DNA of 64,000 bases from an uncultured Acidobacteriota bacterium. Its GTDB lineage: Bacteria > Acidobacteriota > Thermoanaerobaculia > Gp7-AA8. The DNA is taken from the NCBI GenBank assembly GCA_963822445.1, contig CAWGHO010000002.1:2176001-2240000 (forward strand). Reading direction: 5' to 3'. Under the pieces are notes generated by a model. It ran no database searches. It had not been told where the DNA came from and worked only from the letters and a program-made list of their open reading frames with translations. Position numbers and translations under genes: made by a program. How positions within the stretch are numbered: position 1 is the stretch's first letter; each line of letters begins with the position of its first letter. Positions 12,681-42,406 of this stretch are shown here, piece after piece.

Positions 12681-12988
12681 TTCCCCCTGCAGCTGACAGC
12701 ATCGCAAGATTGCGGGCCGCGACCAGCCAAAGTGCGCCCGCCCCCCGCGCCGTTGTGCAGTAGACCCCTTCACACCCGCTCCACCACCCGCGGTAGGCCT
12801 ACTGCACAACGGCGCACCCTCCCGGGCGCCAGCTCGTCGCGGCCCTGAATGTGCGCATCCACCCGACCTCGCGCGTCGAACTCACGAATTGATCCGTGTC
12901 ACGCGGTTGCAGATGGCTTCCTCCGGCGAATCATCAGTCGCCGCAACCGCGTGCCACGGGAAGACCGTGAATTCGACGCGCTCACACC
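12681..12988. ncRNA. Candidate structured element family B, copy 1
   Basis: Two long hairpins with compensatory changes across 4 copies; RNA versus ssDNA role unknown. Confidence 0.5.
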
Positions 12989-13097
12989 CGGGAGATCGCT
13001 GCCCCCCGACCCGCGAGAGCGACACGTCGTGATCAGGCCCGATGTGTCGGCGTGATCTAGATGCTCCAGGTTGTAAACCACCAGTTTCGGTATGAAC

Positions 13098-13412
13098 TTA
13101 GACATTCGCGGGGCGCAAAACCACCAGTTCGGTCACTCCGGAAGTGACCTTTGCCAATTCGGAAGTGACCTTTGCCACTTCGGAAGTGACCTTTGCCACT
13201 TCGGAAGTGACCCTTGCCACTTCGGAAGTGACTTGGGCCACTTCGGAAGTGACCTTTGCCAATTCGGAAGTGACTTGGGCCACTTCGGAAGTGACCTTTG
13301 CCACTTCGGAAGTGACCTTGGCCACTTCGGAAGTGACCACGGCCACTTCGCTAGTGACCTTGGCCACTTCGGAAGTGACCTTGCATTCAACTCTGAGACC
13401 GACGACGGACAT
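13098..13412 (-). CDS. Heptad-repeat (VTSEVAK) coiled-coil-like protein
   Basis: Repeat variants include synonymous changes in this frame (GCA/GCC, TCC to AGC). Confidence 0.5.
   Translation of the reverse strand: MSVVGLRVECKVTSEVAKVTSEVAVVTSEVAKVTSEVAKVTSEVAQVTSELAKVTSEVAQVTSEVARVTSEVAKVTSEVAKVTSELAKVTSGVTELVVLRPANV
13134..13385. repeat. Tandem repeat, 12 x 21 bp
   Basis: Unit CACTTCGGAAGTGACCTTTGC with internal palindrome CACTTC-G-GAAGTG. Confidence 0.95.
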
Positions 13413-13430
13413 GCCGCGCATTGAATGGCT

Positions 13431-13627
13431 GGCTAACTGCTGCCAGCAGCTGACAGCGGCCCGTTTGCCGCTCCCGGGGCTGAAGCCCCTTTTTCCTCCC
13501 GAGACGAACGGCGACATGCCGCTTGCAGATCGCTCCCGCCGACTGGTCGTTAGTCGCGGCAACCGGCCTGCCGCGCGAACCGCACGCGCGCGGGGGCTCG
13601 CTGCAGCTGAGGCGACGTACGTTAGGC
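13431..13627 (+). repeat. attC site 15
   Basis: GGCTAAC...GTTAGGC. Confidence 0.9.
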
Positions 13628-13899
13628 GCACGCAAACACCAGCGCCGTGGCCACACGCGAGAGACGAGCCGCGAAGGTCGCAAGCGGCGTTCGCTGGTCG
13701 CTCGTCGAGAATGAGTGATGCCGCCTTACCCGAGGTCGTTCCGTACGGCGGACGAGTAATCGCTAACGCGCAAATCTAGCCGGGCAGAGGCACATAATTC
13801 CAGATCTGGTTGTTAGCTGCGGCCAGTTTTACTGGTTTCGGCTATGTCGAGGTAGGGAATTGCCCGGCCCAGCCCCTCCTATCTTGGAGGAAGCCAAGA

Positions 13900-14406
13900 A
13901 TGGGCGTCGCCATCAGTGCAGAAGTGGCCATTCAGTTGTTAAACACGATCGGACTCGGCCTTGTTGGCACCGGTCTGTACGTCGTTTACAAAGCCCTTCT
14001 AAAACGCAGCGAACTCCTGTCGGAAAGTGTCGATCAGCTCCAGAAAGCACACGAAGCCGTCGTGAAAACGATGGATAAGCGTTCGACGGAGATTGACTCG
14101 CGATTCGAGGATGAAAAGAAATTTCGAAGCCTGTACCTGTCCCTTCTTGAAGACGCCGAGGTTCATCGCAGCAAGATCAAAGAATGGAAAGAGGACGAGC
14201 TTCACGCGTTACAGAGCCGAATGGATCTCGTGTCTGCTCGCTTGCAACAGCTCGAGGAAGACCACAAAGCTTTGCTCGCGAAGTACTACGAAATCGAAGA
14301 TGGATATCAGAACTCTGTTGCACGAAACCGGTTCCTGGAAAAACAGAACAAAGAACTTCAAGTCGAGCTCGGGAAATCTGGGCCGACAGTCCGCGGGCTA
14401 GCATAA
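13900..14406 (+). CDS. Membrane-anchored coiled-coil protein
   Basis: GGAGG RBS; N-terminal TM then a long charged helix. Confidence 0.75.
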   Translation: MGVAISAEVAIQLLNTIGLGLVGTGLYVVYKALLKRSELLSESVDQLQKAHEAVVKTMDKRSTEIDSRFEDEKKFRSLYLSLLEDAEVHRSKIKEWKEDELHALQSRMDLVSARLQQLEEDHKALLAKYYEIEDGYQNSVARNRFLEKQNKELQVELGKSGPTVRGLA

Positions 14407-14460
14407 GCTCGTGGTGTCAATCCGATCGTCTCGGACCTGCCTCTTGCGCTACTGGCCGGC

Positions 14461-14657
14461 GCCTAACTTTGGTGTGAAGCTGGCACGGCCCGGCTTCGGC
14501 CCGGCAGCCGAGCTGCCTGCCCTGTCGCCAGCGTGACGGCGTCACGGCCGTTGCAGTTCGCCAGTCGTTGCGTGCGACTTCTCGGCGGCAACGGCCGCGC
14601 CGCTGCGGCTTCGGCACGTGGGCCTTGGCCGTGCAGCTTACACCAAGGACGTTAGGC
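14461..14657 (+). repeat. attC site 16
   Basis: GCCTAACTTTGGTG...CACCAAGGACGTTAGGC. Confidence 0.9.
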
Positions 14658-14787
14658 GGACGCATCTTAGCCTGCGTTGCCCGCACGCTTTCCATGAGGC
14701 TCCGCGTACTTGCACGGTCGTCGCGCTCGACCGCCGGTAGGGGGCTAGTTTCGATCTGGGGCCTACTTTCCGCGCATCGCTATCCGT

Positions 14788-15660
14788 CTAATCCCACGGG
14801 CCCCGCTGGCTTGGTAGTGACCAATTACTTGGAAGGCTCCAGGCATCGTCATGCCTTGTGAAGAGTACGCTGGCGTCGTAACGCCGGCCCGAATCGTAAT
14901 CAAGGCTACTACGTAGGAGGGGCGCGACCTCTCCGAAGGGCGTAATGTTTACGTATTGCCACTGGAAATCAACCAGAGCTCGCTCGCCATCGTCGCTTCG
15001 TCGAATGTTTGTGACATCGACCAATGAACGATCCGCCATTTTCATGATACTGCATGTATTGTTCTGATTGTAGGCGCCAGCCTGGGCCGCATAACGGACA
15101 ACCTTGTCACCCACCTTGTACTTCCGGCCTTCGGGTGTCAGCTCGATGTCTATTGCGTAATAGGTATAGTAAGCCCACCGTGATTCTCCGATGGGAGTCA
15201 AGGTGGCCAAGTTGGCTCGCACTAGTGGTTTAAGCCATTCCGGAGTGTCGTTACTGAACATGCTGCTCTGCTTACCGGTGCGGAACGCGTTCGCCGGGAC
15301 TGGTAGCGATTTCAAGCGTTCCCGAAGTACCTCTTGCGCTTTGTCACGAGTGAGTTCTCGGGGCAGCTTGATAACGGGCGCGTCATAAGGAGCGGCGGTC
15401 GCGAGGTTTAGTTGGAGAGATCGACCGATGTAACCGGCCTTCTCAAACTTAACGGTGAAGGCGCCCGGGGCGTAGCCCAGCACATACTTGCCCTCAGAAT
15501 CGGTCTCGGTTGCAAAGGTGCTGTTTTCGATGAATGCCTTGACTCCCGGTATGGGCTTGGCTCCCGATTCCTGCACGGATCCACGTATTTCGGCCTTCTT
15601 GCATCCTCCGAGCGTAAAGCAGACCAGGACGGCAACCCAGGCGAGCGCGGACTTGGGCAT
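14788..15660 (-). CDS. Lipoprotein with carboxypeptidase-regulatory-like domain
   Basis: Lipobox LGGC; IRGSV...PIPGV...TDSEGKY...APGAFTVKFEKAGY; GAGGAGG RBS. Confidence 0.8.
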   Translation of the reverse strand: MPKSALAWVAVLVCFTLGGCKKAEIRGSVQESGAKPIPGVKAFIENSTFATETDSEGKYVLGYAPGAFTVKFEKAGYIGRSLQLNLATAAPYDAPVIKLPRELTRDKAQEVLRERLKSLPVPANAFRTGKQSSMFSNDTPEWLKPLVRANLATLTPIGESRWAYYTYYAIDIELTPEGRKYKVGDKVVRYAAQAGAYNQNNTCSIMKMADRSLVDVTNIRRSDDGERALVDFQWQYVNITPFGEVAPLLRSSLDYDSGRRYDASVLFTRHDDAWSLPSNWSLPSQRGPWD

Positions 15661-15739
15661 GTGAACCTCCTCAGGCGTCTCGCATTATATAACGATAAAT
15701 TGACCGTACGTTAGTAACTTGCCGCAGAGAAATCCCGCC

Positions 15740-15936
15740 GCCTAACTACTGCCAGCAGCGGACGGCGGGCCGTTCGTTGGCCCGGCGGCCGAGCCGCCTA
15801 CGTCGCTCCAACTTGCACGGCGTCACGCCGCTTGCAGATCGCGCCCGCCGACAATCTCGTTAGTTGCGGCAAGCGGCGCGCCGCTTTCCGCTCACGGCTG
15901 TGGGCCTCGCCGCCGCTGAGGCGACAGACGTTAGGC
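15740..15936 (+). repeat. attC site 17
   Basis: GCCTAAC...GTTAGGC. Confidence 0.9.
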
Positions 15937-16126
15937 GCACGAAAACCAGCGACACGTTTGGTAGCATGGACGCGTCGCATTTGGCGCGGGCGAAGGAACG
16001 AAGGCGAAACGCGACGGCCGCAATCGTGACCGGAGCCGACCATGCTGCCCAGTTTATCGCCTGCGTCGCCACTCGACTATGACGAACCGGTCCGCCTGCT
16101 TGCAGCCGTCTGACGGAGGTGAACGA

Positions 16127-16510
16127 TCACAGCTTGGCCTTCTTGGGAAAAATTGTCACGTCGGGTAGGCCACTGAATCCGGAGTCGGTGGTTACGAGCG
16201 TAGCGTCGCTTTCGCGGGCGAATGCCAGCATCATCGAGTCAGCCATCGCCAAGCCGTGCTCAAGGCTCAGATCTGCCGCCGTCAGCGCAACTTCCTCGGT
16301 CAAATTGACGACGACGGTCTTCTTCATGGTGGCCACGGCGTCGAGTGCCTCGTCCTCTGACCGTTCGCGCTTGATCCACTTGTAAACTTCGTAGATTGCG
16401 ACGGTCGGAGTGATGACGTCCGCTGGGCGGCGCAACCTCGTCGCGAACTCCTCGGCGTGCGGACCATCCGCGAAAAACTCGATCCAACCCGAAGAGTCAA
16501 TGACTATCAA
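16127..16510 (-). CDS. vapC: PIN-domain toxin VapC
   Basis: VIDSSGWIE, YEV, ADS and TTDSGF PIN acidic residues. Confidence 0.9.
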   Translation of the reverse strand: MIVIDSSGWIEFFADGPHAEEFATRLRRPADVITPTVAIYEVYKWIKRERSEDEALDAVATMKKTVVVNLTEEVALTAADLSLEHGLAMADSMMLAFARESDATLVTTDSGFSGLPDVTIFPKKAKL

Positions 16511-16716
16511 AACCGATCCTTCTTTTCGCGGAAGCCGGTTGTGCGAATACCGCGAACGAACCCGCGCATTGACGAGATCGGTCTGTCGGGAACAAGCGTG
16601 ACGCTGCCACCCTTAGCGATTACTTGAAACTCTTGCCCGACGCGAATCTTGGCGCGCTCCCGTACATCCTTCGGTATAACGACCTGATACTTTGACGATA
16701 CTCTCGTTCGGGTCAT
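16507..16716 (-). CDS. vapB: AbrB/MazE/SpoVT-family antitoxin
   Basis: VSSKYQVVIPKDVRE motif; 4-bp overlap with vapC. Confidence 0.9.
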   Translation of the reverse strand: MTRTRVSSKYQVVIPKDVRERAKIRVGQEFQVIAKGGSVTLVPDRPISSMRGFVRGIRTTGFREKKDRF

Positions 16717-16808
16717 TGCGGAACTCCTTCGCTGGATCGATCATCAGTATCGTAAGACGCGGCGACAGCACTGTCAACGCCCGATTCACGTGTCTCATTT
16801 CGGCCGCC

Positions 16809-17007
16809 GGCTAACTACTGCCAGGAGCTGTCGGCGGGCCGTTTGCCGCGCCCGGCGCTGAAGCGCCTCGGTAAGCGTCGATTGGCCGGCGGCACGCCGG
16901 CCGACATGCTCTCGCGCCGCTAGCCGCGGCGCGAACACTGCAGCCGTCGCGCCGCGCAACCGCTCGCACGCGGGGCCTCGCCGCAGCTCAGGCGATAGAC
17001 GTTAGCC
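16809..17007 (+). repeat. attC site 18
   Basis: GGCTAAC...GTTAGCC. Confidence 0.9.
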
Positions 17008-17022
17008 GGACGATAATGAGAC

Positions 17023-18173
17023 GTGACTAAATCTATATACTTCGTTGGAGCTGGGTTCACCAAGGGTCTTCAGCAGCGGATGCCGATCCCGATGATGATG
17101 GATTTCGTACAGGTGATGGCTCACTACGCGAGCCGCGATGACGTGGTGCTGATGGCATTGATCGGGCTCGAGGGGGAAGGTTGCTTTAAGAACAAGAACC
17201 CTGTTCTGAAGGCTTTAGCAAACGATATCAGACCCAAGCGACATCGCCGAAAGCTGCTGGCAGGAGTGCTCCAGCGCGAACCTGAATCCATCGAGGCCCT
17301 GCTCTCCAGAGCTGAGCGAATCGACCGTCGATTCACGAAGCTTACCCGCCGAGTGTTGCTTGCGGCAATCAATGATCCGGTGTTGCGCGCTCAGTACGCA
17401 ATCAGCCGAATGTTCTTCAGGATCGGCTGGCGCCTTCGGCTGGACACTCTCAAGCAGTACCTAGCGCTAAGAGCTCGCCAGCCACGTAGTCGGCATACGT
17501 TCGTTAGCTTCAACTACGACCTCGTGCTTGAACACGCACTGGAAGAAGCCGGCACGTCGTGGTCCGCAAAGGCGGGTTACGGCGTGAGGTTCGCGTGGGC
17601 AATTCTGGAGGATCCCTCCGAAGGCGCCGGGGCACCAGTTGTGCCACTCAACGGCACGGCGGCGTCCAACGTCAGCGTCTTGAAACCTCACGGCTCACTC
17701 AACTGGCTGCTGCCATCCGACGGCAGGCCGCGCCTTCCTGTCGTTGCTACCACGGTCGAGGGCCACGTCCGTTACATTGGATCCACAGAAACCCATGCCG
17801 GCATTCGTTTCCCGGACGAGTTGCCCGTGCGTGTCGCACCGTTCATTCTGCCACCGACTAGTTCCAAGAACACAGATCTCGCGATTCTACGAACCTGCGC
17901 AGAAAGGAAGCAACCGCCATTCTGTCCGCGGATGAGTTGTACGTGATTGGTTGGAGCATTCCCAAGACAGATGTAGATCAGGTCAAGCTGATCCAACAGG
18001 CGATGGCTCGGCGGCGAAAGCCCTTCTCGCGTGTCGTAGTTGTTAACTATCGCCAACCGGAACGGTACTACCGCCGGGTGGCGCGCCTGTTCGGTGTCCC
18101 TTTAAGAAGCGTGGAACGCTTTGATGACGGCGTGCTAGATTTTACAGCGTCACAGTTGGCCCTCGCCGGCTAA
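17023..18173 (+). pseudogene. SIR2-like protein, frameshifted near ~17895 (or sequence error)
   Basis: GAGF, SFNYD, LKPHGSLNW and ILPPT motifs; YVIGWSIPKTD continues in another frame. Confidence 0.8.
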
Positions 18174-18363
18174 CTACTGCCAGAAGCTGGCACGGCCCGG
18201 CGTCGGTCCGGCGCTGAAGCGCCTACATCATCGCCAGCGGGACGGCGTCACGCCGGTTGCAGATCGTCAGGCGTTGCAGGCAACTTCTCGCCGGCAACCG
18301 CCGTGCCGCTCCGGCTTCGGCACGTGGGCCCTGGCCGTGCAGCTTAGGCGATAGACGTTAGCC
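18168..18363 (+). repeat. attC site 19
   Basis: GGCTAAC...GTTAGCC. Confidence 0.9.
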
Positions 18364-18677
18364 CGACGACGACCAGAGATCCTCGCACGACTTGGAGAGC
18401 GTCCCGCTCGACAGCGGGCTCGAGGCGGCACCCCTCGATGGCCGCGAAGCCAGAGGAACATGGCTTATCGTCGCAGTTCCTTGCATTTCCAAGAGCATCC
18501 ACGCCCGCAGACTCACGTTTTGGAGCGTTGCGCTCACTTCCGTCTCGCGATCGAGCCGGATCCACATCGGCAAGCCACATCGACCAAGACGCGAGCGGCG
18601 TCATGAAGTGATCGGCTGACACGGAAAGCCGGCAACAGTTTGGGTGCCGGCCGGTCGCTCAGCTAGAATACGGCGCC

Positions 18678-18902
18678 ATGTCGTACGAAGGAATCATCAC
18701 GATCGAGCCGGGAAAGAGGGGCGGCCAACCCTGTATTCGCGGTATGCGCATGACTGTCTACGATGTCCTGTCGTATCTGGCCGCCGGGATGACGGAAGAG
18801 GAAGTCCTCCATGATTTCCCGTATCTGACGCACGAGGACGTTCTCGCTTGTCTCAGCTACGCGGCTGAGCGTGAGCATCGCATGCTGGTCGTAAACGAGT
18901 GA
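18678..18902 (+). CDS. DUF433 antitoxin
   Basis: PGKRGGQPCIRGMR...FPYLTHEDVLACLSYAA. Confidence 0.9.
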   Translation: MSYEGIITIEPGKRGGQPCIRGMRMTVYDVLSYLAAGMTEEEVLHDFPYLTHEDVLACLSYAAEREHRMLVVNE

Positions 18903-19246
18903 AGCTCCTCTTCGACCACAACATCTCACCCGACCTCGTTCGCAGACTGCGAGATTTGTTTCCCGAATCGGACCACGTTTACAACCTGAATTTGCACGAA
19001 GTGGACGATCACATCGTCTGGGCATTCGCTCGGGAGAATACCTTCATCGTTGTAACAAAAGATGTTGATTTCTCCGAACTCTCCATGGTGCAGGGATTTC
19101 CCCCGAAGGTCTTGTGGCTTCGTCTTGGCAACTGCCGGACACGCGACATCGAAGACCTGATCCGCTCCAATTACGAATACATACTGCAACTGGTGGCGGA
19201 CGATGAGAGAGCCATCTTGTCTCTGTTCGCGAAGGCCGCGGGCTAA
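18899..19246 (+). CDS. DUF5615 PIN-like toxin
   Basis: MKLLFDHNIS...VVTKDVDF; overlaps the DUF433 gene. Confidence 0.9.
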   Translation: MKLLFDHNISPDLVRRLRDLFPESDHVYNLNLHEVDDHIVWAFARENTFIVVTKDVDFSELSMVQGFPPKVLWLRLGNCRTRDIEDLIRSNYEYILQLVADDERAILSLFAKAAG

Positions 19247-19436
19247 CTACTGCCAGAAGCTGGCACGGCCCGGCCTCGGTCCGGCGGCCGAGCCGCCTAC
19301 TTCGTCGCCAGCGTGGCGGCGTCACGCCGGTTGCAGATCGCGTCGCGCTGCTTCAGCTTAATCGCGGCAACCGGCGCGCCGCTCTGGCTTCGGCACGTGG
19401 GCCTTGGCCGTGCAGCTTAGGCGATAGACGTTAGCC
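19241..19436 (+). repeat. attC site 20
   Basis: GGCTAAC...GTTAGCC. Confidence 0.9.
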
Positions 19437-19696
19437 CGACCTGGGCAGCGACGCTTCGCGTTCCGCAGACTCTCCGTGCCCCGCACGTTCATGGTGGTGC
19501 CAGCCCGCCGTCCTCCCTGCGCGCATTCGACCACCGTGCTCGTGCGCGTCACCACGCCTGCCACCGGAGTCATTGCGGCAGTTGTCGTCGTCCGTGCGCA
19601 AGCCCCTCGCCACATGTCTCACCCTGACCCTGTGCGCTCCCGCGGCGCCATCGCTGCTCCCGCACGGACTGCGTCGGTTTGGGCGATAATCGCTGC

Positions 19697-20644
19697 ATGG
19701 CCGACGAAGTTGAGAATCGTGCGCGGCTGCTTTTCGAGGCGGCAGAACGTGCCGGTTGGCAAAATGCTTCTGAAATTGTCGCGCGAATTCGAGGACTGCA
19801 GCGTGGCCTGCCAGCGGAAGATGAACTGGCCGTAATCCTTCATTGGCTAGGTCGATGCCGTATGATTCATAAGCTAGATCAAGCATCGCAGTACCCGCCC
19901 TCATCGAGGGCCGACTTCGTCGTACCCGACCTTCTCGCGGTGTTTGAGCACGAAGGTCGCACAGTTCCCGTGCTTATCGAGGTGAAACGAACCCAAAAGG
20001 ATCGCCTCAAGTGGCGGCAATCCTATCTTCAAGGTTTAAAGTCGTACTCGGATGCCGTCGGAATCCCACTGTTAGTCGCTTGGAAATTCGCAACTTTCTG
20101 GTGTTTATTCGATCCGGCACATTTTCGGCTGGCACAAACTAACCTTCACGCCAAGTTCCTCGAAGTAATGCCGCACTCCGTGATGAGCTCCCTAGCCGGT
20201 GACTTCTCATTCTCGCTACGGTCGGGCGTGGGATTCCACTTGCACATGCGCAAAGAGCAGAAAACTGACACTGGTTGGCATGTTCGGATCAAACGAGCGT
20301 ACGTGACAGACGGAGATGCACAGCAGTACGGCAAAGCGCCCGGCGTTCTTCAGTTGCTAGCTTGTTTTCCAACGGAGGCCGACCATAACGAGACACGACG
20401 TTATCTCAAACAAAGCTACATTGTTCCCGACCATAGTCTGGCTGAATTCGCCCATCGCTGCCTCGTCAAGTTGATCGCGGCGTTCGGCGGTCGCGAGAAA
20501 CCGAAAAGCTGGCGCGGCTATCTGCAAGGCGCGCATATCCCCGAAACAGCTTCGAACTTCTATGACACTGTCAATAACCTTGCACCCGCGTTCGTGCAAC
20601 GCATCTACCGAATAAGACCGAAAGTGAAACCTGCCTTCCTCTAA
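19697..20644 (+). CDS. PD-(D/E)xK restriction-endonuclease-like protein
   Basis: AEDE...VPDLLAVF...LIEVK. Confidence 0.75.
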   Translation: MADEVENRARLLFEAAERAGWQNASEIVARIRGLQRGLPAEDELAVILHWLGRCRMIHKLDQASQYPPSSRADFVVPDLLAVFEHEGRTVPVLIEVKRTQKDRLKWRQSYLQGLKSYSDAVGIPLLVAWKFATFWCLFDPAHFRLAQTNLHAKFLEVMPHSVMSSLAGDFSFSLRSGVGFHLHMRKEQKTDTGWHVRIKRAYVTDGDAQQYGKAPGVLQLLACFPTEADHNETRRYLKQSYIVPDHSLAEFAHRCLVKLIAAFGGREKPKSWRGYLQGAHIPETASNFYDTVNNLAPAFVQRIYRIRPKVKPAFL

Positions 20645-20650
20645 CCGGCG

Positions 20651-20850
20651 GGCTAACTACTGCCAGGAGCTGTCGGCGGGCCGTTTGCCGCGCCCGGCGC
20701 TGAAGCGCCTCGTGAAGCGTTGATTGGCCGGCGGCACGCCGGCCGACATGCTCTCGCGCCGCTGATCGCGGCGCGGCTTGCTGCAGCCGTCGCGCCGCGC
20801 ACCCGCTCGCACGTGGGGCCTCGCCGCAGCTCAGGCGATAGACGTTAGCC
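20651..20850 (+). repeat. attC site 21
   Basis: GGCTAAC...GTTAGCC. Confidence 0.9.
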
Positions 20851-21059
20851 GGATTGGCGAAGCAGCTCGCCGAGTCGCCGCTTTCTATGATTACCCACTA
20901 GCAACATCCGCACTAGCCGACGGAGCACTCCTCGCTCTTACCGCAGGAACGTCCGGGCTGGCTCGAGCCTAGGCTGAAGCGGAAGTGCCTCATCGGCAGT
21001 CACTTATCGGCTCTCGTGGCATCCGTAACGCATCCGACGTAGAATCCAGAGCGAACTGT

Positions 21060-21287
21060 ATGAACTGGCAGCCCCACATCACCGTCGATCCCAACGTATG
21101 CCATGGTCAGGCCTGCGTCGCCGGAACGCGGGTCCTCGTATCCGTTGTACTCGACAACCTCGCTGCCGGAGTTCCGGAGCCGGAGATCGTTGCAAGCTAC
21201 CCGCGGTTGACCCCCGAGGCTATTCAAGCATGCCTCGCATACGCCGCGGACTTGGCGCGTGAAGAAGTCGTTGGCTTGCCCGCGTGA
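21060..21287 (+). CDS. DUF433 antitoxin
   Basis: DPNVCHGQACVAGTRV...YPRLTPEAIQACLAYAA. Confidence 0.9.
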   Translation: MNWQPHITVDPNVCHGQACVAGTRVLVSVVLDNLAAGVPEPEIVASYPRLTPEAIQACLAYAADLAREEVVGLPA

Positions 21288-21640
21288 AGTTCAAGGTAGA
21301 CGAGAATCTGCCCGATGAACTGAGTCAGCTTCTTCTCGACGCAGGGTGGGATTCACTCACCGTTGTCGAGCAACAACTTGGCGGCGCGCAGGATCCTCAA
21401 CTTGCTCAGGTGTGTCGTGACGAAGTGCGGGTCTTCGTCACCTTTGATCGCGGCTTCGCGAATATCCGTGCCTATCCGCCCTCTCAAAGCCCAGGCATGA
21501 TTGTCTTTCGCCTCAAGAGTCAAGACAAGCCTCACGTCCTCGAAACCGCAGAGCGTCTTGTCGTGGCTCTTTTACAGCGCGAAGTTCGCAACGAGTTGTG
21601 GATAGTTAGTGAGAACCGCATCCGCATACGGTCGCTATGA
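21284..21640 (+). CDS. DUF5615 PIN-like toxin
   Basis: MKFKVDENLP...FVTFDRGF. Confidence 0.9.
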   Translation: MKFKVDENLPDELSQLLLDAGWDSLTVVEQQLGGAQDPQLAQVCRDEVRVFVTFDRGFANIRAYPPSQSPGMIVFRLKSQDKPHVLETAERLVVALLQREVRNELWIVSENRIRIRSL

Positions 21641-21661
21641 GCCAGGCTTTTTCGGCGAACC

Positions 21662-21850
21662 GGCTAACTACTGCCAGAAGCTGGCGGCGGGCCGTTCGCC
21701 GCGCCCGGCGGCCGAGCCGCCTATCGGGTCCCGAGATGCGCGGCGTCACGCCGCTTGCAGCCGCGTCAACGTGAAATGCGGCAAGCGGCGTGCCGCGACT
21801 GCCCGCTCGCACGTGGGGCCTCGCCGCAGCTTAGGCGATAGACGTTAGGC
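21662..21850 (+). repeat. attC site 22
   Basis: GGCTAAC...GTTAGGC. Confidence 0.9.
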
Positions 21851-21924
21851 CGATGAGATGAGACTCGCTACTTCACGGTACCTTCGCCGCGGTCCGCTGT
21901 CGATCGTGTAAACTCTCCACAACG

Positions 21925-22635
21925 ATGAAAGTGTTCATTAGCCATGCAGCTGCCGATCGTGAAATTGCAGAGCGGATTGCCGCGGTGCTCGGCAGAGATG
22001 GTATGGAGGTGTTCACCTACTGGCATGACGTTGCCGCCGGCGAGGCGATTCGCGCACGCGTCTTCGAAGCCATCAATTCAAGTGACGCCGTTATTGTTCT
22101 TGTGTCAAGTTCCAGCGAACGAAGCATTGCGGTGTCAGAAGAGACGTCGGTTGCTCTGTATTCAGACCGCCACCTGCCAGTAAAAGTGATCCCCGTTATC
22201 GTGGAGGCAGGCATTCAGGTGCCGGTCATGCTTCGCGACATTCGAGGAGTAGATTTGAGCTCGCCTGATCGCTGGCAACGGGGTATCGATGACCTCCTAG
22301 CTGCGCTTCACATACCTTCGCGTGAGTCGTATCGCGATGAGTGGGACTATATCCGTGCGTCAAGGGATGCCCTTGAGGTTGAGAAGTTGGAATATGAATT
22401 CGCTCGGCGGAAGCACGGGCTGGAAGCGATCGTTGGGGTAATGTCGCGGGCAACAACGGCAGGTGGCCTGCTTGTAGCTGGCGTCGCCATCTGGTTGTCT
22501 AGCGAACTATCGCTTGTTGCATTCTCTCGGGCAGCGCCCGATATTGTTAAGATTTTCTTGACTCTCTTGGGTCCCGTCGCGGCGTTCGCATTCGGTTACT
22601 ACTTTGGCACGCGCTCTAAGGCGGATAGGCCATGA
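21925..22635 (+). CDS. TIR-domain protein with two C-terminal TM helices
   Basis: KVFISHA, V.EE and VIPV motifs; TM segments ending FGYYFG. Confidence 0.85.
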   Translation: MKVFISHAAADREIAERIAAVLGRDGMEVFTYWHDVAAGEAIRARVFEAINSSDAVIVLVSSSSERSIAVSEETSVALYSDRHLPVKVIPVIVEAGIQVPVMLRDIRGVDLSSPDRWQRGIDDLLAALHIPSRESYRDEWDYIRASRDALEVEKLEYEFARRKHGLEAIVGVMSRATTAGGLLVAGVAIWLSSELSLVAFSRAAPDIVKIFLTLLGPVAAFAFGYYFGTRSKADRP

Positions 22636-23018
22636 AAGAGGAGGACGTTACACCGCTGGTCGTCGCGCGTGCTGGCGAGATGCTGCGGCAAGAGCGCGAG
22701 ACCTTCGATCAGAGGAAGCAGCATGAAGACCGGTGGTTCCGTTTACGGCTTACGATGGGATATTCGTCTATCGCGTTGCTTGCCGGTATCATGTGCCTTT
22801 GTATGTATATTATTTTCAACGCGGCGAAGTTTCCGGCCACGGTAATTACATCGGCCGGCGCGGCGCTATTCGTAGACGTTCTAGGCTTGTTGCTCGGAGT
22901 GTGGAAAATTGCCCTTAATCCGAACTTCATGGCCACGTTGACACCGGTCACACGAGTGAGCGTTCCAGCTCCCGAAAACGAGTCAGAGAGCAAGCCTCCT
23001 CCAGAGATCACGGCCTAA
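22632..23018 (+). CDS. Two-TM membrane protein coupled to the TIR gene
   Basis: ATGA overlap; two hydrophobic segments; stop in R''. Confidence 0.8.
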   Translation: MKEEDVTPLVVARAGEMLRQERETFDQRKQHEDRWFRLRLTMGYSSIALLAGIMCLCMYIIFNAAKFPATVITSAGAALFVDVLGLLLGVWKIALNPNFMATLTPVTRVSVPAPENESESKPPPEITA

Positions 23019-23202
23019 CTCTTGTGTGAAGCCGGCGCCGGGCCGTTTGCCGGGCCCGGCGGCCGAGCCGCCTACCGCGTCCCGAGACGCATGGCGTCAC
23101 GCCGCCCGCAACCGCGTCAAGCGACAATCGGCGGCAGGCGGCGTGCCGCTCTGCCCGCACGCGCGCGGGGCCTCGGCGCGGCTTACACAAAGAACGTTAG
23201 GC
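23013..23202 (+). repeat. attC site 23
   Basis: GCCTAACTCTTGTG...CACAAAGAACGTTAGGC. Confidence 0.9.
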
Positions 23203-23272
23203 CGTCCTGGCCACAGCGCTTCGCGTCCTTGTCACCTTCTCGTCGAATTTCGCGTCTATCAATCTGTTCGCC

Positions 23273-23580
23273 TTCCCCCTCGCAGCTGACAGCATCCCGA
23301 GGTTGCGGGCCGCGACCAGCAAAACGCGCTTCCCGCATGCCCAAATGTGCCGTCGGTCCCTTCTCGCACACCGCCCGCGGTAGACCGACGGCACACTTGG
23401 CCATCACACCCGCCCGGCGCACGCTCATCGCGGCCCTGACAGCACGCACCGCCGCCCTCGCGCGCCGAACTCACGAATGCATCCGTGTCACGGCGGTTGC
23501 GGTCTCTCCAATGACTTACTCCTCGGTCGCGGGCAACCGCCGCGCCACGGGCCAGAGCGTAAATTCGGCGCGCTCACACC
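23273..23580. ncRNA. Candidate structured element family B, copy 2
   Basis: Same two-hairpin architecture as 12681-12988. Confidence 0.5.
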
Positions 23581-23823
23581 CCGCTTGCGCTGCTCCCATC
23601 CCGACGGATAGTTGCGTCAACCAACTTTAGCGAGCGGCGGCGACACACTTTCGCAAGAAAGGTGTCAAATCGATATCGACCATACCTACCGACGCCGGTA
23701 GCCGACCCATGCTGGCGGCCGTCTACGTCGCTATGTCCGAGCGTTTGGGCGGATGGTTCGTTGTACGCTGTCGTTTGGCCGTTGGCCGGGCTTGTAACAT
23801 TTGATTTCAGGAGGCAGACGTAT

Positions 23824-24342
23824 ATGGCACTCAGGACCTGCGCCGACTGCGGCGCTCAGGTTTCGACTGCAGCCAGCGCGTGCCCATCGTGCGGTCGTCC
23901 AGTCACCAAGCCACTTCTGCAGCGAAACGTCGGTTGCGGCGGCTGCCTCGTTCTGCTTGTTCTACTCTTCATCATCGGATCACTTGTCTCACCCGACAAA
24001 GGCGAGCCACGGCCGCCCAAGCCGTCATCAACACCCGCTGAAACAAGGCAACTCGGAAGCGGCAATCGGCAAGTACATCTTCGTCGACTCGTGAACGATC
24101 TGTCGCCGCTGTTGTTGAGGTATGAAGAGACTGGTCCCGCCTCCGTAAACCTGTATATCGATCATGAAGGTTGGAATGGGATGAGCCGCGATCAGCAACA
24201 ACAACTAATGGATACGCTGGCATCAAAGCAGATTGTTCGGGACATCGGCGCCACGCTACATCTATACGTTCTTCAAACCGAAGTCGGAACGATTGGTCCC
24301 GGCTGGAGTGGTGAGTGGAAGTTCCGTCGCACGAACGGGTGA
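23824..24342 (+). CDS. Zinc-ribbon membrane protein
   Basis: AGGAGG RBS; CADC...CPSCG followed by a TM helix. Confidence 0.85.
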   Translation: MALRTCADCGAQVSTAASACPSCGRPVTKPLLQRNVGCGGCLVLLVLLFIIGSLVSPDKGEPRPPKPSSTPAETRQLGSGNRQVHLRRLVNDLSPLLLRYEETGPASVNLYIDHEGWNGMSRDQQQQLMDTLASKQIVRDIGATLHLYVLQTEVGTIGPGWSGEWKFRRTNG

Positions 24343-24398
24343 CGAGTTCAGCCAACGCAGCTCGTTTCGGCGGCGACACAACGGTTCCGCGACGAGCG

Positions 24399-24597
24399 GC
24401 CTAACTACTGCCAGGAGCTGTCGGCGGGCTGGCTCCGTGGCTCGTCGGCCGAGCCGACTCGGCCGACTCCAACCTGCGCGGCGTCACGCCCGTTGCAGTT
24501 CGCTCCTGCCGTCAAAGGCGTTGGTCGCGGCAACGGCCGCGCCGCTCTGCTGATTGCGCCGGTGAACCCGCCGCAGCTCAGGCGACAGACGTTAGGC
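24399..24597 (+). repeat. attC site 24
   Basis: GCCTAAC...GTTAGGC. Confidence 0.9.
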
Positions 24598-24762
24598 CGA
24601 CGAACGGAAGACGAAAGTTTGAAACGTTTCGTCGTGATTCTTCACTACCTCTATGCAGGTCGCCAGACGACATGCTGAACGCCCGCGCTGCGGGGTCTTT
24701 ACGTTCGTTCCGCGAGCCGAGCACGAGCGCGGCCACCGTCGACTTACAATGAGGAGGACGCC

Positions 24763-25539
24763 ATGCTGAGAATCGCCGTCGTGTTTAGTTCAACTTTGTG
24801 CATCGTTTCAATCGCACTGCAAGCACAAGAACGACCGTCGCCACCGCGAACACCCAATCAGGTAGTGCCAATCGTAGGCCACGTATCCGGCAGTGGAGGC
24901 AGTGAGTTCAGGAGCGACTTGAAGATCTATAACCCGTCGTCGACGCCGCTGACTCTGACATTAATCTACACACCACGGAACCAATCCGCATCCACTGCCG
25001 ACGCGTCGGAGGTGCTTTCAATTGCTCCGTTCGAAGTGGTCTTTCTCGAGGACGTATACGATTTCGCATTCCCAGGACAAAGCGGTGCTGCGAGGCTTGC
25101 CCTTGTTCTAGCCGATCCGTACGGGCCGGCGCTTGTGACGGACACCTCAACCTATACTCTCGTTGGCCAGAAGGGCGAGCTTGGGCAGAGCCCGACGATA
25201 TTCACAGAGGCCCAGTACTTCGGCACAGGTGTTAAGCTGATCGGACTCCTTGGTAAGGCCACTGAACGCACGAATCTGTTCGTGATGACCGGTCAATCGG
25301 GTGTCACCATACGGTGGCGGTATAGGACTAGCTATGGCGACCCGATACAGCTGGTTGTTCGTACCTATTCACCTAACGCAACGTTTCAGTTCGGTGCTAC
25401 CGATCTTCTTGGGTTTCCGCCCGAGGCAAACGCCTCTCTTGAGGCGACGATCGAATCGGGAAGTGCACGGATTGCACTGAGTCCCGTCAACAACATGACG
25501 AATCAAGGCCGCTGGGCCGACTTTAAGGTCGTGCCGTAG
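24763..25539 (+). CDS. Secreted beta-rich hypothetical protein
   Basis: GAGGAGG RBS; signal peptide; VVPIVGHVSGSGGSEFRSDLKIYNP. Confidence 0.8.
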   Translation: MLRIAVVFSSTLCIVSIALQAQERPSPPRTPNQVVPIVGHVSGSGGSEFRSDLKIYNPSSTPLTLTLIYTPRNQSASTADASEVLSIAPFEVVFLEDVYDFAFPGQSGAARLALVLADPYGPALVTDTSTYTLVGQKGELGQSPTIFTEAQYFGTGVKLIGLLGKATERTNLFVMTGQSGVTIRWRYRTSYGDPIQLVVRTYSPNATFQFGATDLLGFPPEANASLEATIESGSARIALSPVNNMTNQGRWADFKVVP

Positions 25540-25558
25540 GTAAACAGCGGTGGCCGCG

Positions 25559-25748
25559 GCCTAACTACTGCCAGAAGCTGGCAGCGGGCCGTTTGCCGCG
25601 CCCGGCGGCCGAGCCGCCTACCGGGTCCCAAGGTGCACAGCGTCACGCCGCTTGCAGATCTCGTCGTTCGTGAATCGCGGCAAGCGGCGTGCCGCTCTGC
25701 CCGCACGCGCGGGGCGCCTCGCTGCAGCTTAGGCGATAGACGTTAGGC
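25559..25748 (+). repeat. attC site 25
   Basis: GCCTAAC...GTTAGGC. Confidence 0.9.
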
Positions 25749-25818
25749 GGTCGTCTGCACGAACGCTCCGCGTCCATGTAGATTTTTACTACGAGGACTC
25801 GTCCTTCAATCGGCACGC

Positions 25819-29454: not shown

Positions 29455-29645
29455 CGTCTGTCGCCTGAGCTGCGGCGGGTTCACCGACGCAAACGGCAGA
29501 GCGGCGCGGCCGTTGCCGCGACCAACGCCTTTTCAGGCAGGAGCGACCTGCAACGGACGTGACGCCGCGCAGGTTGGAGTCGGCCGAGTCGGCTCGGCCG
29601 ACGGGCCACGAAGACAGCCCGCCGACAGCTCCTGGCAGTAGTTAG
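29449..29645 (-). repeat. attC site 27, inverted (IS1595 element at its R'')
   Basis: Reverse complement of the CTAACTACTGCCAGG...GGCGACAGACGTTAGGC consensus. Confidence 0.9.
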
Positions 29646-29706
29646 GGCATCAATATACTTGCCTCACCTGTCGAGAGACGGTAGGATGCTGTAACAGTCC
29701 TAATCC

Positions 29707-35839: not shown

Positions 35840-36873
35840 TGTGATGTGTCAGGACGTTGTTCCTTGAAGCGGGTTGTCCATCCGGGCGACTTTCGTCAAT
35901 CTGAAAGCTCTCAAACGAACAGGTTGACAGGAAGGAACCCAGATGGACGTGCACAAGAATGCGCGAAGCTGCCCGTTGAGTCGAGCACTGCTGGTCAAAC
36001 GAGTCTGCGAACAAGGATGGTCGGTGCGCGAGGCGTCGGAGGCCGCCGGTATGAGTGACCGGCGAGGGCGGGAGTGGATCCGTCGTGGTCTGAGGGTCGA
36101 GCCGCTTAACGATCGGAGCTCCAGACCGCACAGGGGCCGGGCCACGAGCGACATAAAACGACAGCGTGTTCTGAGTCTTCGCCGCGAATGGCGGACTGTG
36201 CGACAGATCGCGCAGGCAGTGGGCGTGAGTGCGTCGACAGCAGCGCGGATCTGCCGGTCAGCAGGGCTGGCTCGGTTGCGTCAGCTTGAGCCGGCAACAG
36301 TGCCAATTCGGTACGAGAAGGAGCGTCCGGGGGAACTGGTGCACATCGACATCAAGCGCCTGGGACGGTTCAATCGAGTGGGACACCGCATCACCAGGCG
36401 TCGATCGTTTGGCTCAAAGAAGCAGGGCTTCGAGTTCGTGTACGTCGCGACGGATGACTTCACCCGACTCTCCTACGTCGACGTCCTGGCAGATGAGCGT
36501 AGCGAGACTGCCAGCTCGTTTTTGACTCGGGCGGTGGCGTGGTTCGCTCAGCGGAATGTCATCGTCGAGCGGGTGATGACCGACAACGGATCGGCCTTCA
36601 TCTCACGCGACTTCCGGGATACCTGCAGCCGCCTGAACCTCACTCACGTCCGCATCCGGCCGTACACACCACGGACGAACGGTAAAGCGGAGCGGTTCAT
36701 CCAGACGCTGCTGCGCGAATGGGCCTATCGGTTCTCGTACCACAGCTCCGAGGAACGGCGCCGTTGGCTCGCACCGTACCTTCACTTCTACAACTACCAC
36801 CGAGCGCATACCGCGCTCTCTTACAATCCACCCATCAGTCGCCTGGATCGGAACAACGTCCTGAGACGCAACA
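35840..36873 (+). mobile_element. IS481-family element copy 2, inserted in attC R'
   Basis: 1034 bp; GTTAGG on both sides. Confidence 0.95.
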
Positions 36874-36878
36874 GTTAG
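35943..36878 (+). CDS. IS481-family DDE transposase
   Basis: Same protein as 27354-28289; TAG stop supplied by the target GTTAG. Confidence 0.95.
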   Translation: MDVHKNARSCPLSRALLVKRVCEQGWSVREASEAAGMSDRRGREWIRRGLRVEPLNDRSSRPHRGRATSDIKRQRVLSLRREWRTVRQIAQAVGVSASTAARICRSAGLARLRQLEPATVPIRYEKERPGELVHIDIKRLGRFNRVGHRITRRRSFGSKKQGFEFVYVATDDFTRLSYVDVLADERSETASSFLTRAVAWFAQRNVIVERVMTDNGSAFISRDFRDTCSRLNLTHVRIRPYTPRTNGKAERFIQTLLREWAYRFSYHSSEERRRWLAPYLHFYNYHRAHTALSYNPPISRLDRNNVLRRNS

Positions 36879-37762: not shown

Positions 37763-37770
37763 CCGCCGCC

Positions 37771-38990: not shown

Positions 38991-39275
38991 GGACCCGGCG
39001 CGAAACGTAGGCCGGACTTCTATTTACGCGTTGGCAGTCGCGCCGACAGAAGCGGCGTAGCCGCGCGCCAAGGCGTCCGCCGCCATTTTCGTCGTGGTAC
39101 CCGCCCGCCCACCGGCTGCTCGCACCAGCAGCGCGCGCGGGGCACGATCTGCGTAGGCCAGTGACCACAAAACTCGAGACGCACTGACGTAGCGGGCCTT
39201 CGGCCACGCGCGCTTCGCGTCGTGCACCATTTGCCGCGCGCGCTGCTCCCAGCGCGCAAAGCTGTGCGTGTGGCC
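38985..39275. repeat. ORF-less cassette family A, copy 7 (variant centre)
   Basis: Homologous to copy 4. Confidence 0.85.
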
Positions 39276-40406: not shown

Positions 40407-40426
40407 GTGTGCTGAAGCACGGGGCC

Positions 40427-40623
40427 GGCTAACTACTGCCAGAAGCTGGCACGGCCCGGCTTCGGTCCGGCGGCCGAGCCGCCTGCATCATCGCCAGCGG
40501 CACGGCGTCACGGCGGTTGCAAATCGGCAGGCGTTGCATGCAACTTCTCGCCGGCAACCGCCGCGCCGCACGGGCTTCGGCACGTGGGCCCTGGCCGTGC
40601 AGCTTAGGCGATAGACGTTAGCC
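40427..40623 (+). repeat. attC site 34
   Basis: GGCTAAC...GTTAGCC. Confidence 0.9.
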
Positions 40624-40664
40624 GGACGACGGGGAGACAGATAGGAACGTTATACTGATGACGC

Positions 40665-41693
40665 TTGAAGCTTTTCTATAGTTATTCATCGTCCGATGAG
40701 TCGTTCAGAAGCGAGTTCGAAGACCACCTTTCGTTACTCAAACGCGACGGCCTTCTGGAAACGTGGTCATTTCGAAATATCAGTGCTGGTTCAGATTGGG
40801 AGCGCGAGATCGACGACCGCCTTGCGATTGCCGACATCGCGCTCCTTTTGGTCAGTGCCAGTTTCATCGCGTCGAGATACTGCTGGGAGGTTGAACTGCG
40901 TCACGCGATCAAACGAGTGGACCGTGGCGAGATGCTCCTCATACCGGTTGTCATTCGCCCATGTGATTGGCAAACGGCACCGTTCGCCCGCTTCCAGGCT
41001 TTACCGGACGGCGCGAAGCCTGTCACATCGTGGCGTCCGCGTGACCGAGCGTGGGCGAATGTGGCAGCCGGGCTTCGAAACTTGATCGAAGCGAAGAGAA
41101 ATCCAACTGCTGCAACGACGGCTATTCACAATTCAGAGATGGGCAAACGTCAGATTGCGCAGGCGTTTCAACAGGCCCGTGAAGCCACTGATCACGCAGA
41201 TAGGCGTCATAAGCGCCTCGTGCGACAGGTAAACGAGCGTCGCATGAACCTGTTGACTGAATTGCCGCATCTACATAACGCAGTGGCGCAGCTCGTTGCG
41301 CATATCGCGCCAGAATTCGCGCCGACGCTGTCGATCGAGGGCGAACGGCTGACGATTGTGAGAGATCGAATACGTATGGTGGTTGAGCCTTCCGACAGCG
41401 GCCATAACTTAACGGTGACATTGGCGCGGTATGATAGCTCCAACGGTATTACGTTTCTAGGAATTGAAGTGATGGTGCATACAGTGATGTTACTTCGGAA
41501 CGTGACCAGAAAGTGGCGCGTGGAGACCGAGCACGTTTGGCGCCGGGAACTGACCGATAATGTTGAGACTTGGATATGGAGTCACGCGACGAGAGAACTG
41601 AAGGCGAACACCGAAGAGCTAGCGAGTCTGCTGCTTAGACGGTTTGCAGATCGCTGCGCAGGTCTCACGAACCCGGATAATGCCGCCGGCTAA
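40665..41693 (+). CDS. TIR-domain protein
   Basis: KLFYSYS, LLLVSASFIASRYCWEVEL and IPVVIRPCDW motifs. Confidence 0.9.
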   Translation: MKLFYSYSSSDESFRSEFEDHLSLLKRDGLLETWSFRNISAGSDWEREIDDRLAIADIALLLVSASFIASRYCWEVELRHAIKRVDRGEMLLIPVVIRPCDWQTAPFARFQALPDGAKPVTSWRPRDRAWANVAAGLRNLIEAKRNPTAATTAIHNSEMGKRQIAQAFQQAREATDHADRRHKRLVRQVNERRMNLLTELPHLHNAVAQLVAHIAPEFAPTLSIEGERLTIVRDRIRMVVEPSDSGHNLTVTLARYDSSNGITFLGIEVMVHTVMLLRNVTRKWRVETEHVWRRELTDNVETWIWSHATRELKANTEELASLLLRRFADRCAGLTNPDNAAG

Positions 41694-41884
41694 CTACTGC
41701 CAGAAGCTGGCACGGCCCGGCTTCGGTCCGCCGGCCGAGCCGGCTGCATCATCGCCAGCGTGACGGCGTCACGGCGGTTGCGGTTCGGCAGGCGTTGCAT
41801 GCAACTTCTGGCCGGCAACCGCCGTGCCGCTCGGACTTCGGCACGTGGGCCCTGGCCGTGCAGCTTAGGCGATAGACGTTAGGC
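41688..41884 (+). repeat. attC site 35
   Basis: GGCTAAC...GTTAGGC. Confidence 0.9.
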
Positions 41885-42090
41885 CGTCCGTGGCCACAAC
41901 GCTTCGCGTTCTTGTGAGCCCTTCGTCGCATTCACAGTTCTCATACCCTCCAGCCCCCCCTCGCAGTGTCGAAGGTGACGGGCGGCTGCCACCGATAAAA
42001 TGTTCCCCATCGAGTGGATCCGATCCCATGTCGATTTCATCTGCCACGGACATTTTTACGACCCTCTCCGTTGCATGCCGCTGCGGCACG

Positions 42091-42406
42091 TTCCCCCCAC
42101 GCAGCTGCCGACACCGCGATATCGCGGGCCGCGACCAGCAAAACGCGCCTCCCGCATGCCCAAGGGTGCCGTCGGTCCCTTCAAACTCGCCCACCAACCG
42201 CGGTAGACCGACGGCACCCTTGGGCATCACACCCTCCCGGCGCACGCTCGTCGCGGCCCTGACTTCACCCGCCGCCCACCCTCGCGCGCCGAACTCGCGA
42301 ATGCGTGCCGTGACACTGCGGTTGCATATCGCTCCCCGCTGACGGGGTTGTTAGTCGCGGCCAACCGCCGCGCCACGGGCGGTGACCGTGAATTCGGCGC
42401 GCTCAT
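42091..42406. ncRNA. Candidate structured element family B, copy 4
   Basis: Same architecture; leader from R' onward is homologous to that of copy 2. Confidence 0.5.

Follow-up and report, generated by a model that had tools for sequence, protein, structure and literature searches.

Integron cassettes are usually described as a promoterless gene together with an attC site, with a very short 5' end. Long imperfect palindromes, on the other hand, are familiar from the ERIC, Correia and REP/REPIN repeats, which are non-coding, occur in many copies, show compensatory changes in their arms and are dispersed genome-wide in both orientations. Here we describe family B, a non-coding unit of ~345 nt that occurs in a 64,000-nt stretch of DNA from an uncultured Acidobacteriota bacterium (the window, by which we mean the whole of that stretch; all coordinates refer to it unless prefixed C1, C2 or C3). 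Family B is an undescribed, integron-restricted, covarying double hairpin that is tied to cassettes. It shares its palindromic design and its compensation with ERIC, Correia and REP repeats, but differs from them in its confinement to integron arrays, its single orientation and its fixed offset from the crossover.

Several kinds of cassette offer a closer comparison. In the sections of these sources compared here, Boucher et al. 2006 (PMC1382264) describe paralogous, lineage-restricted non-coding cassettes of sedentary chromosomal integrons; cassettes without an open reading frame (ORF) are reported to have promoter activity (10.1101/427781 / PMC6557892); PMC8876359 deals with ORF-less cassettes that carry promoters or small RNAs (its section 2.4.3), with fused cassettes (2.4.4) and with a disputed attI 'riboswitch'; and PMC4670013 deals with fused gene cassettes that arise through partial loss of the upstream attC. 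As portrayed in those sections, ORF-less cassettes resemble family B in being non-coding, present in multiple copies per array, lineage-restricted and highly conserved in nucleotide sequence between species, and both are suspected of being either selfish or useful to the integron. Family B differs from them in that it lacks an attC of its own, is never a lone cassette, heads gene-carrying cassettes of unrelated cargo, and has a large covarying two-hairpin fold containing a stripped attC core. With fused cassettes, as these sources present them, family B has in common an attC remnant between units that move together and, in some copies, remnants of a 3' terminus after the tail; however, the remnant architecture of family B is common to 30 or more copies before different cargo, for which a single fusion is insufficient. 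The titles and abstracts of the literature compared here mention no conserved structured head shared by gene cassettes, supplements, which possibly list non-coding families, lying outside this comparison. Family B is related to the known non-coding and fused cassettes, yet distinct from both as they are described in these sources.

A covarying double hairpin confined to integron arrays

The window holds four copies of family B, all on the + strand: copy 1 at 12679-13013 (cassette c59), copy 2 at 23271-23604 (c68), copy 3 at 25818-26155 (c70) and copy 4, our reference copy, at 42090-42433 (c79). An earlier annotation of this DNA (the sequence-only reading) had placed four related leaders at 12681, 23273, 25819 and 42091, and all four copies are present there and can be aligned, with a mean column identity of 79%. 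The stems that it quoted (GGGCCGCGA/TCGCRGCCC, the CCCTTC...CCGCGGTAG loop, GCGCGYCGAAC/ATTCGRCGCGC and GCGGTTGC/GCAACCGC) are likewise all there, as are three inner stems that have been replaced in sequence and nevertheless pair. The possibility that family B is itself coding was rejected, since the copies differ through 1-nt indels.

Searched with a profile built from the four window copies (nhmmer), the 6.0-Mb genome yielded eight full copies and no more (E 5e-99 to 1e-72). All eight are on the + strand of C2, between 2150179 and 2218437, four in the window and four upstream of it by 7-26 kb. Furthermore, all eight are inside one intI-linked integron array of ~106 kb, and none was found in the attC clusters located elsewhere in the 6.0 Mb. 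The copies are not dispersed through the genome without a link to cassettes, and the proposed association with cassettes is supported. Consistent with the suggestion of an undescribed motif, no Rfam family was matched at the gathering threshold anywhere in the window, the best sub-threshold match to a copy with its flanks reaching 26.5 bits against a cut-off of 168 bits. A remnant of a group IIC-attC intron was also considered and rejected: neither Intron_gpII nor a related Rfam family gave a match at gathering, nor one at E <= 10 on the copy with flanks.

The conserved unit spans TTCCCCCTC-GCAGC to GCTGC-TCCCRCCC, and a 5-bp closing stem, P0, surrounds two hairpins. In copy 4, the 5' strand of P0 (GCAGC; helix 1, 94.5% paired) is located at 42101-42105, domain 1 (helices 2-7) at 42126-42259, domain 2 (helices 9-12) at 42284-42402, and the 3' strand of P0 (GCTGC), together with a C-rich tail (TMCCRCCC), at 42418-42433, all on the + strand; the similarity between copies stops a few bases beyond. 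Domain 1 is composed of a 10-bp near-invariant outer stem (GGGCCGCGAC/GTCGCGGCCC) and a variable, covarying inner helix of ~20 bp, capped by an apical loop that is conserved and rich in C (CCCCTTCACACCC...CCGCGGTAGG). In domain 2, GCGCGCCGAAC and ATTCGGCGCGC form the base, which is followed by internal loops, by a helix made up of GGCGGTTGC and GCAACCGCC, and by a variable tip. On the + strand, the domain-2 base contains a conserved C.A mismatch, equivalent to a T.G wobble on the - strand, that survives two covarying contexts.

Covariation was determined from 30 distinct full-length copies of the genome itself, its relatives and soil metagenomes. Copies from outside this genome were obtained (i) by BLAST of congeneric genomes; (ii) by a pattern scan of a species collection, in which only 3 of 118 loci were true copies among the matches listed, the pattern being too permissive in G+C-rich genomes; and (iii) from soil metagenomes, where 25 of 25 loci were true. 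The pattern, which requires two loop motifs as well as a set sequence for the 5' strand of the domain-1 outer stem, retrieved 20 of the 30 copies (19 metagenome, 1 species collection). Over the 72 pairs in these 30 copies, 96.6% of 2118 cells pair. Changes on both sides were seen at 35 of the 72 pairs and in 121 cells, compared to 13.0 and 22.8 in shuffled data, and none of 500 shuffles reached the observed values; when partners were slid by 1-3 columns, only 9-16 cells with a two-sided change remained. The covariation claimed in the sequence-only reading is thus strong. Two-sided changes far exceed one-sided ones, and many of them are transversion swaps. As is characteristic of attC, family B is imperfectly palindromic and folds when single-stranded: the RNA fold of one copy has an energy of -163.5 kcal/mol (z -5.8; 0 of 100 shuffles), and the DNA fold of the complement of that copy has a z of -4.8.

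Conservation is unevenly distributed along the unit, pairwise identity being 0.99 in the domain-1 outer stem, 0.93 in P0, 0.88 in the domain-1 loop, 0.76 in the inner helix and ~0.6 in the domain-2 tip and the joints. As the loop and base of domain 1 are better conserved (0.88-0.99) than the neutral parts (about 0.6), parts of family B appear to be under sequence constraint, subject to the bias introduced by the search pattern. The ten rows that are free of this bias (8 own-genome, 2 BLAST) agree with those that were retrieved by pattern.

Family B is narrowly distributed. BLAST identified it in 7 of 35 genomes of the genus, and the domain-1 covariance model in 9 of 127 genomes of the order, representing 3 of 43 genera, all of one family. 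In both tallies, three genomes flagged as unpublished (G002, G086, G138) are counted as non-matching, and no copy was taken from them.

Position in the cassette, cargo and relation to attC sites

The array belongs to a sedentary chromosomal integron. Its integrase gene (C2:2118113-2119048; TIGR02249, 456 bits, the cut-off being 265) precedes a series of 86 full-length attC sites, all co-oriented (~195 nt, GCCTAAC...GTTAGGC), which extend from C2 2120564 to 2226591. Family B is present in eight of the 85 cassettes of this array (23, 30, 35, 39, 59, 68, 70 and 79); a further 12 are the gene-less cassettes of family A, and the remainder are unique except for three duplicate pairs. At ~195 nt, the attC sites of this array are exceptionally long, and they possess a conserved core together with a side hairpin. 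In the metagenomes, all 25 loci match the family B profile, and 24 of these 25 also hold matches to the attC profile.

Each copy in the window is preceded by an attC site. The one upstream of copy 2 is a standard ~195-nt site at 23013-23202 (+ strand, GCCTAAC...GTTAGGC), and its equivalents ahead of copies 1, 3 and 4 are at 12317-12507, 25559-25748 and 41690-41884. In this genome, the family B profile match begins 52-188 nt past the end of the preceding attC. A regular-expression scan identified an R'-like box ahead of 26 of the 30 copies, and in 21 of these the distance from the GTT of R' to P0 is 86-91 nt (the scan gave 22, but the R' call for window copy 1 was false). The first 35 nt of this head contain a conserved motif, GGCCACAACGCTCCGCGTCC, and head and family B together make up the first ~440 nt of certain cassettes, about 1 in 10 in the array. 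The head of copy 4 (41878-42089, + strand), with the R' box GTTAGGC and the head motif GGCCACAACGCTTCGCG, is longer than the usual ~88 nt; it also contains a truncated second left end of family B (CCCCCCCTCGCAGTG) at 41945-41975, ~130 nt before the full copy.

The orientation of family B is always that of the attC sites, regardless of the strand of the cargo gene, and among the metagenome and relative loci analysed for orientation no oppositely oriented attC was found. Family B thus keeps a fixed position with respect to the boundary of the cassette and not with respect to the gene. The attC sites that flank the B cassettes, both before and after, are scattered over the attC subtypes of the array; a link between family B and a particular subtype was rejected because of this scatter, which also indicates that the history of family B is independent of both neighbouring attC sites.

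The cargo is unrelated across cassettes, including TIR_2 and FRG domains, a 21-bp tandem repeat, a weakly matched zinc ribbon and many proteins to which no Pfam family could be assigned (none was found for a further 15 cargo ORFs, of which one belongs to c30 of this genome and 14 come from relatives and metagenomes). Across three genera, family B precedes more than 20 unrelated genes. Of the four kinds of cargo listed in the sequence-only reading, two are above the Pfam cut-offs: the TIR-domain gene of c70, at 26176-27282 (+ strand; 368 aa from the MRIPF start; TIR_2, 6e-28), and the FRG-domain gene of c79, at 42467-43120 (+ strand; FRG, 9e-25). The zinc-ribbon match of the + strand ORF downstream of copy 2 is below the cut-off (3.7e-4), and the 'repeat ORF' following copy 1 proved to be the 21-bp tandem repeat, with no clear gene. 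About 16 tandem copies of the 21-bp unit lie at 13092-13424, between copy 1 and the next attC, and the 110-aa 'ORF' of this interval is probably merely the repeat read in frame. Among 18 distinct cassettes, one contains a tandem repeat alone and another lacks an ORF of at least 90 aa. The FRG gene is found both with family B (c79) and without it (c6, outside the window), the two paralogues being 58% identical; in c6 the gene starts right after the attC, with no family B ahead of it. Cassette c70 is a 99% duplicate of c35, which is upstream of the window, and carries an IS481-family insertion.

At three loci, family B follows a diverged paralogue, B', which is situated at the cassette head. The architecture and loops of B' are those of family B, whereas its domain-1 outer stem differs in sequence, with compensation, and no attC intervenes between B' and B (L158, reverse complement, 269-607 and 885-1231; L193, 1958-2297 and 1340-1677; and L169). 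The B' copies were found by profile, not by pattern. Partial forms, consisting of domain 1 only or of domain 2 only, are present in relatives. Such tandem arrangements and modular partial copies would be compatible with a non-autonomous mobile palindromic element, either similar to miniature inverted-repeat transposable elements or REP sequences or moved as single-stranded DNA, that targets cassette heads adjoining attC sites through some transposase or recombinase reading P0 and the domain-1 base. The nested-palindrome architecture, the two sharp ends at the base of P0, the history independent of both neighbouring attC sites and the presence in this genome of insertion sequence (IS) elements that target attC point in the same direction. 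We nevertheless consider such an element highly improbable, as family B is found in one orientation and in integron arrays only, rather than being dispersed in both orientations; it has no terminal inverted repeats past the 5-bp P0; no target duplication was seen by eye in the alignments; and no candidate transposase is linked to it. Moreover, the ~88-nt head begins precisely at the IntI crossover, and its constant length and partial conservation suit a part of the cassette better than an insertion.

Domain 2 provides the connection to attC. The attC profile of the array aligns to domain 2 in all eight own copies, covering at most attC positions 52-182 of 199 (E 2.5e-10 to 8.5e-5), such that only the core is aligned while the outer ~50 nt (5') and ~17 nt (3') of attC are absent; most metagenome copies exhibit the same homology. 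Judged by these alignments, domain 2 can be taken as a paralogue of the attC core. It is, however, devoid of attC R boxes: its base reads GCCGAAC...ATTCGGC, its 3' arm has AATTCG in 23 of the 30 copies, GTTCG in one and other sequences in six, and the P0 base is without AAC/GTT. The suggestion that domain 2 has a core like attC centres was thus correct as regards the core and did not extend to the R boxes. As conservation continues for ~45 nt past domain 2, domain 2 is not a cassette boundary; family B sits at the cassette head and not at a 3' end that terminates at the crossover. In summary of this comparison, family B and the attC sites of the array are alike in that both are imperfect palindromes folding as single strands, in the homology of domain 2, limited to the core, to attC 52-182, in their identical orientation and in lying within 90 nt of each other; they differ in that family B has no RYYYAAC/GTTRRRY at its base, is at the 5' end of the cassette and is conserved past the hairpin.

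We also considered whether the whole unit might be a giant attC, whose R'' would lie in the head motif and whose R' would follow the tail. Three tests of pairing between the head and the sequence beyond the tail led us to reject this idea: duplex energies had a z of about 0, local alignments a mean z of -0.08 (n=24), and restricted duplexes reached p <= 0.05 in 0 of 22 cases.

Some own copies have an attC-like 3' terminus after the tail (GAGATACAG-GTTGGCC, CAATC-GTTAGCC, TTTC-GTTGAGC), others being mutated there. When c79 and c6, the FRG cassette without family B, are aligned, the GTTGAGC of c79 lies opposite the R' box of c6. These termini, and a domain 2 that corresponds to an attC core minus its R and L boxes, raise the alternative that family B is a decayed ORF-less cassette, similar to those of family A, that has lost its outer attC boxes and is now dead weight heading its neighbour, its hairpins persisting by palindrome-templated correction and recent copying. 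Fused cassettes produced by partial attC loss are documented in the sections compared of PMC4670013 and PMC8876359, and paralogous non-coding cassettes in those of PMC1382264. A single fusion, however, cannot place the same truncated module before more than 20 unrelated cargoes, and a site in truncated form would not be expected to move. No intact cassette consisting of family B and its own attC was seen, the next attC being at least 417 nt away in the eight own-genome copies and at least 580 nt away in the other copies analysed, which are the smallest distances observed. Only 5 of the 30 copies have an R'-like box behind the tail, and the conservation of the domain-1 loop and base (0.88-0.99, compared to about 0.6) speaks for constraint. 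We thus regard a fused relic as an improbable origin of family B.

Family A comprises 12 gene-less cassettes of ~290 bp with their own attC subtype and a structured interior. Eight of these are in the window, at 1680-1970, 2161-2452, 5184-5477, 5667-5954, 6145-6435, 10935-11226, 38991-39275 and 46797-47089, and four more are upstream of it. The family A hairpin is closed by GCAGC-GCGCGCG...ATTCGGCGCGCGC-GCTGC-TCCC, that is, by P0 stacked on the domain-2 base and followed by the family B tail. As P0, the domain-2 base and the tail are common to both, families A and B share building blocks. When held against the properties of ORF-less cassettes, family B is paralogous within the array, lineage-restricted and conserved at the nucleotide level, and its left end coincides with the crossover in most copies; an attC of its own is lacking.

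RNA leader or folded DNA

The sequence-only reading referred to family B as a leader. According to this interpretation, the + strand would be transcribed with the cassette and form a cis-acting structured RNA that might stabilise the mRNA, provide processing sites or allow read-through of downstream attC hairpins; at 21 bp, the perfect helix of domain 1 has sufficient length for RNase III. In most cassettes the element is indeed upstream of, and co-oriented with, the cargo ORF, and the strong covariation, the z of -5.8 of the RNA fold and the conserved, strand-asymmetric loops all count in its favour. Furthermore, the domain-1 covariance model scores 159 bits on the + strand and 46 bits on the - strand at the same place, and the B cassettes are spread over positions 23-79 of the 85 in the array, its distal two thirds, in which the distance from the promoter would make such help necessary.

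The stems, however, lack the excess of G.U that is seen in a structured RNA. Among the stem cells of the 30 copies, 1864 are Watson-Crick, 44 are G.U, 26 are A.C and 39 are other combinations; since a single doubtful pair within the domain-1 loop accounts for 17 of the 44 G.U cells, the figures without that pair are 27 G.U and 26 A.C. In contrast, RNase P RNA from 28 genomes of the same order, our control (mean identity 0.83, with loci of two further genomes, flagged as unpublished, excluded), has 2511 Watson-Crick, 251 G.U, 5 A.C and 31 other cells, and the difference in G.U versus A.C between family B and this control is pronounced (Fisher p 4e-15). The rarity of one-sided relative to two-sided changes, and the transversion swaps, are also not what selection on an RNA helix produces.

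Additional observations weigh against a leader. The cargo is antisense in 2 of the 18 distinct cassettes, one of them in this genome and one in a metagenome. The former is a 324-aa gene whose stop is 27 nt from the element and which has four homologues (50-62% identity over 98-99% of the length); when it was sought, with or without family B, in the 127 genomes of the order, the own copy alone was found. The latter is a 274-aa ORF with a coding-type GC pattern. A scan of 12300-27500 revealed no conserved sigma-70-like promoter or terminator at the copies, with 6 promoter-like sites compared to 4.0 expected. There is no Rfam match, domain 2 is derived from a DNA recombination site, and the higher score of the + strand model follows from the asymmetry of the loops, with no bearing on transcription. 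Family B behaves more like folded DNA than like a regulatory leader, and the name 'structured leader' is apt only in part. The RNA leader is the weaker of the two interpretations; we consider it unlikely.

Taken together, we infer that the pattern of changes fits hairpins that are kept at the DNA level, either by selection on folded single strands or by hairpin-templated quasi-palindrome correction. The interpretation that we favour, with a probability of roughly 0.45 and hence tentatively, is that family B is an attC-related nested-palindrome DNA module that heads certain cassettes and that would act, if it acts at all, as folded single-stranded DNA beside attC. Family B would accordingly belong to the integron itself, having been assembled from integron repeat material, with half of it recycled from attC, and domain 2 would be a copy of the attC core that has lost the R and L recognition boxes. 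Folded-single-strand selection, hairpin-templated correction, or both, would preserve the hairpins. If active, the folded strand next to the recombination site might be read via the near-invariant base and the loop of domain 1, and could serve as an accessory or decoy structure influencing the recombination or the stability of its cassette; it would be neither a metabolite- or protein-sensing mRNA leader nor a site of IntI crossover. The retention of the loop in the diverged B' copies, in which the outer stem differs, favours this interpretation, as do the confinement to integron arrays, the position relative to the crossover, the stem composition, the attC homology of domain 2, the antisense cargo and the building blocks common to families A and B.

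Several points count against the DNA module. (i) The model leaves unexplained how one module comes to precede more than 20 unrelated cargoes. (ii) Family B has no R'' box, and GTTRRRY after the tail is restricted to the 5 copies mentioned above. (iii) The true attC sites of the array, which are DNA sites, have 152 G.T versus 25 A.C on the top strand, whereas the stem mismatches of family B have no strand asymmetry; the lack of asymmetry is therefore no general mark of DNA hairpins, and equal numbers of G.U and A.C could also reflect young mismatches. (iv) In 16 of the 18 distinct cassettes the element precedes an ORF or repeat of the same orientation, the arrangement expected of a leader, and the sense strand is strikingly C-rich and G-poor throughout its unpaired parts. 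(v) The invariance of loop and stem in the pattern-retrieved rows (20 of 30) is partly by construction. (vi) At L158, L169 and L193, a diverged copy precedes the element by ~280 nt, and the element itself is away from the crossover.

A more far-reaching variant would make family B a second kind of folded-DNA site, an accessory arm beside attC in the excised circle, in which attC, the 88-nt head and family B would be contiguous. It might then mark the point at which gene and attC are joined, the sharp 3' end at the base of P0 being an assembly scar left, for example, by template switching at large hairpins, and family A would represent the 'empty' form. We consider this variant very unlikely.

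Other features of the array and implications

The integrase gene shares the strand of the cassettes and is directed into the array, a 'reverse' arrangement known from few phyla, as opposed to the usual divergent one. An IS481-family insertion (311-aa transposase; LZ_Tnp_IS481, rve) is present three times in the window, at 27354-28289 (-), 35943-36878 (+) and 44430-45365 (-). Two of these three copies are 100% identical over 300 nt, and each copy abuts the GCCTAAC (R'') end of an attC, both orientations being seen. Three pairs of cassettes, c1/c62, c22/c83 and c35/c70, are 99-100% identical while being tens of kb apart within the array; the members within the window are c62 (15937-16808), c83 (47281-48121) and c70 (25749-28391). 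Cassette c71 (4.6 kb) contains one full inverted attC at 29449-29646 (C2 2205449-2205646), as well as a piece of ~65 nt that matches domain 2 of family B in reverse. Away from the integrase, attC sites of the same type form clusters that resemble clusters of attC sites lacking integron-integrases (CALIN), at C1 99350-100777, 228369-228558 and 1228039-1231762, C2 479968-493879, and C3 159402-160316, 1333656-1336343 and 1356221-1357416; none of these has family B.

Family B demonstrates that non-coding integron modules can be parts of gene cassettes, and not just separate gene-less ones. Methodologically, strong covariation in a palindromic repeat is no evidence of RNA, and a test of G.U versus A.C with RNase P RNA of the same lineage as the control separates the two readings. 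The location of family B between the crossover and unrelated cargo raises the testable question of how head and cargo are joined, and thereby touches on the unsolved origin of cassettes; family B may, as the sequence-only reading also suggested, be a relic of cassette construction. If the accessory-arm or assembly-scar variant were true, family B would be the first sequence handle on how integron cassettes are made.

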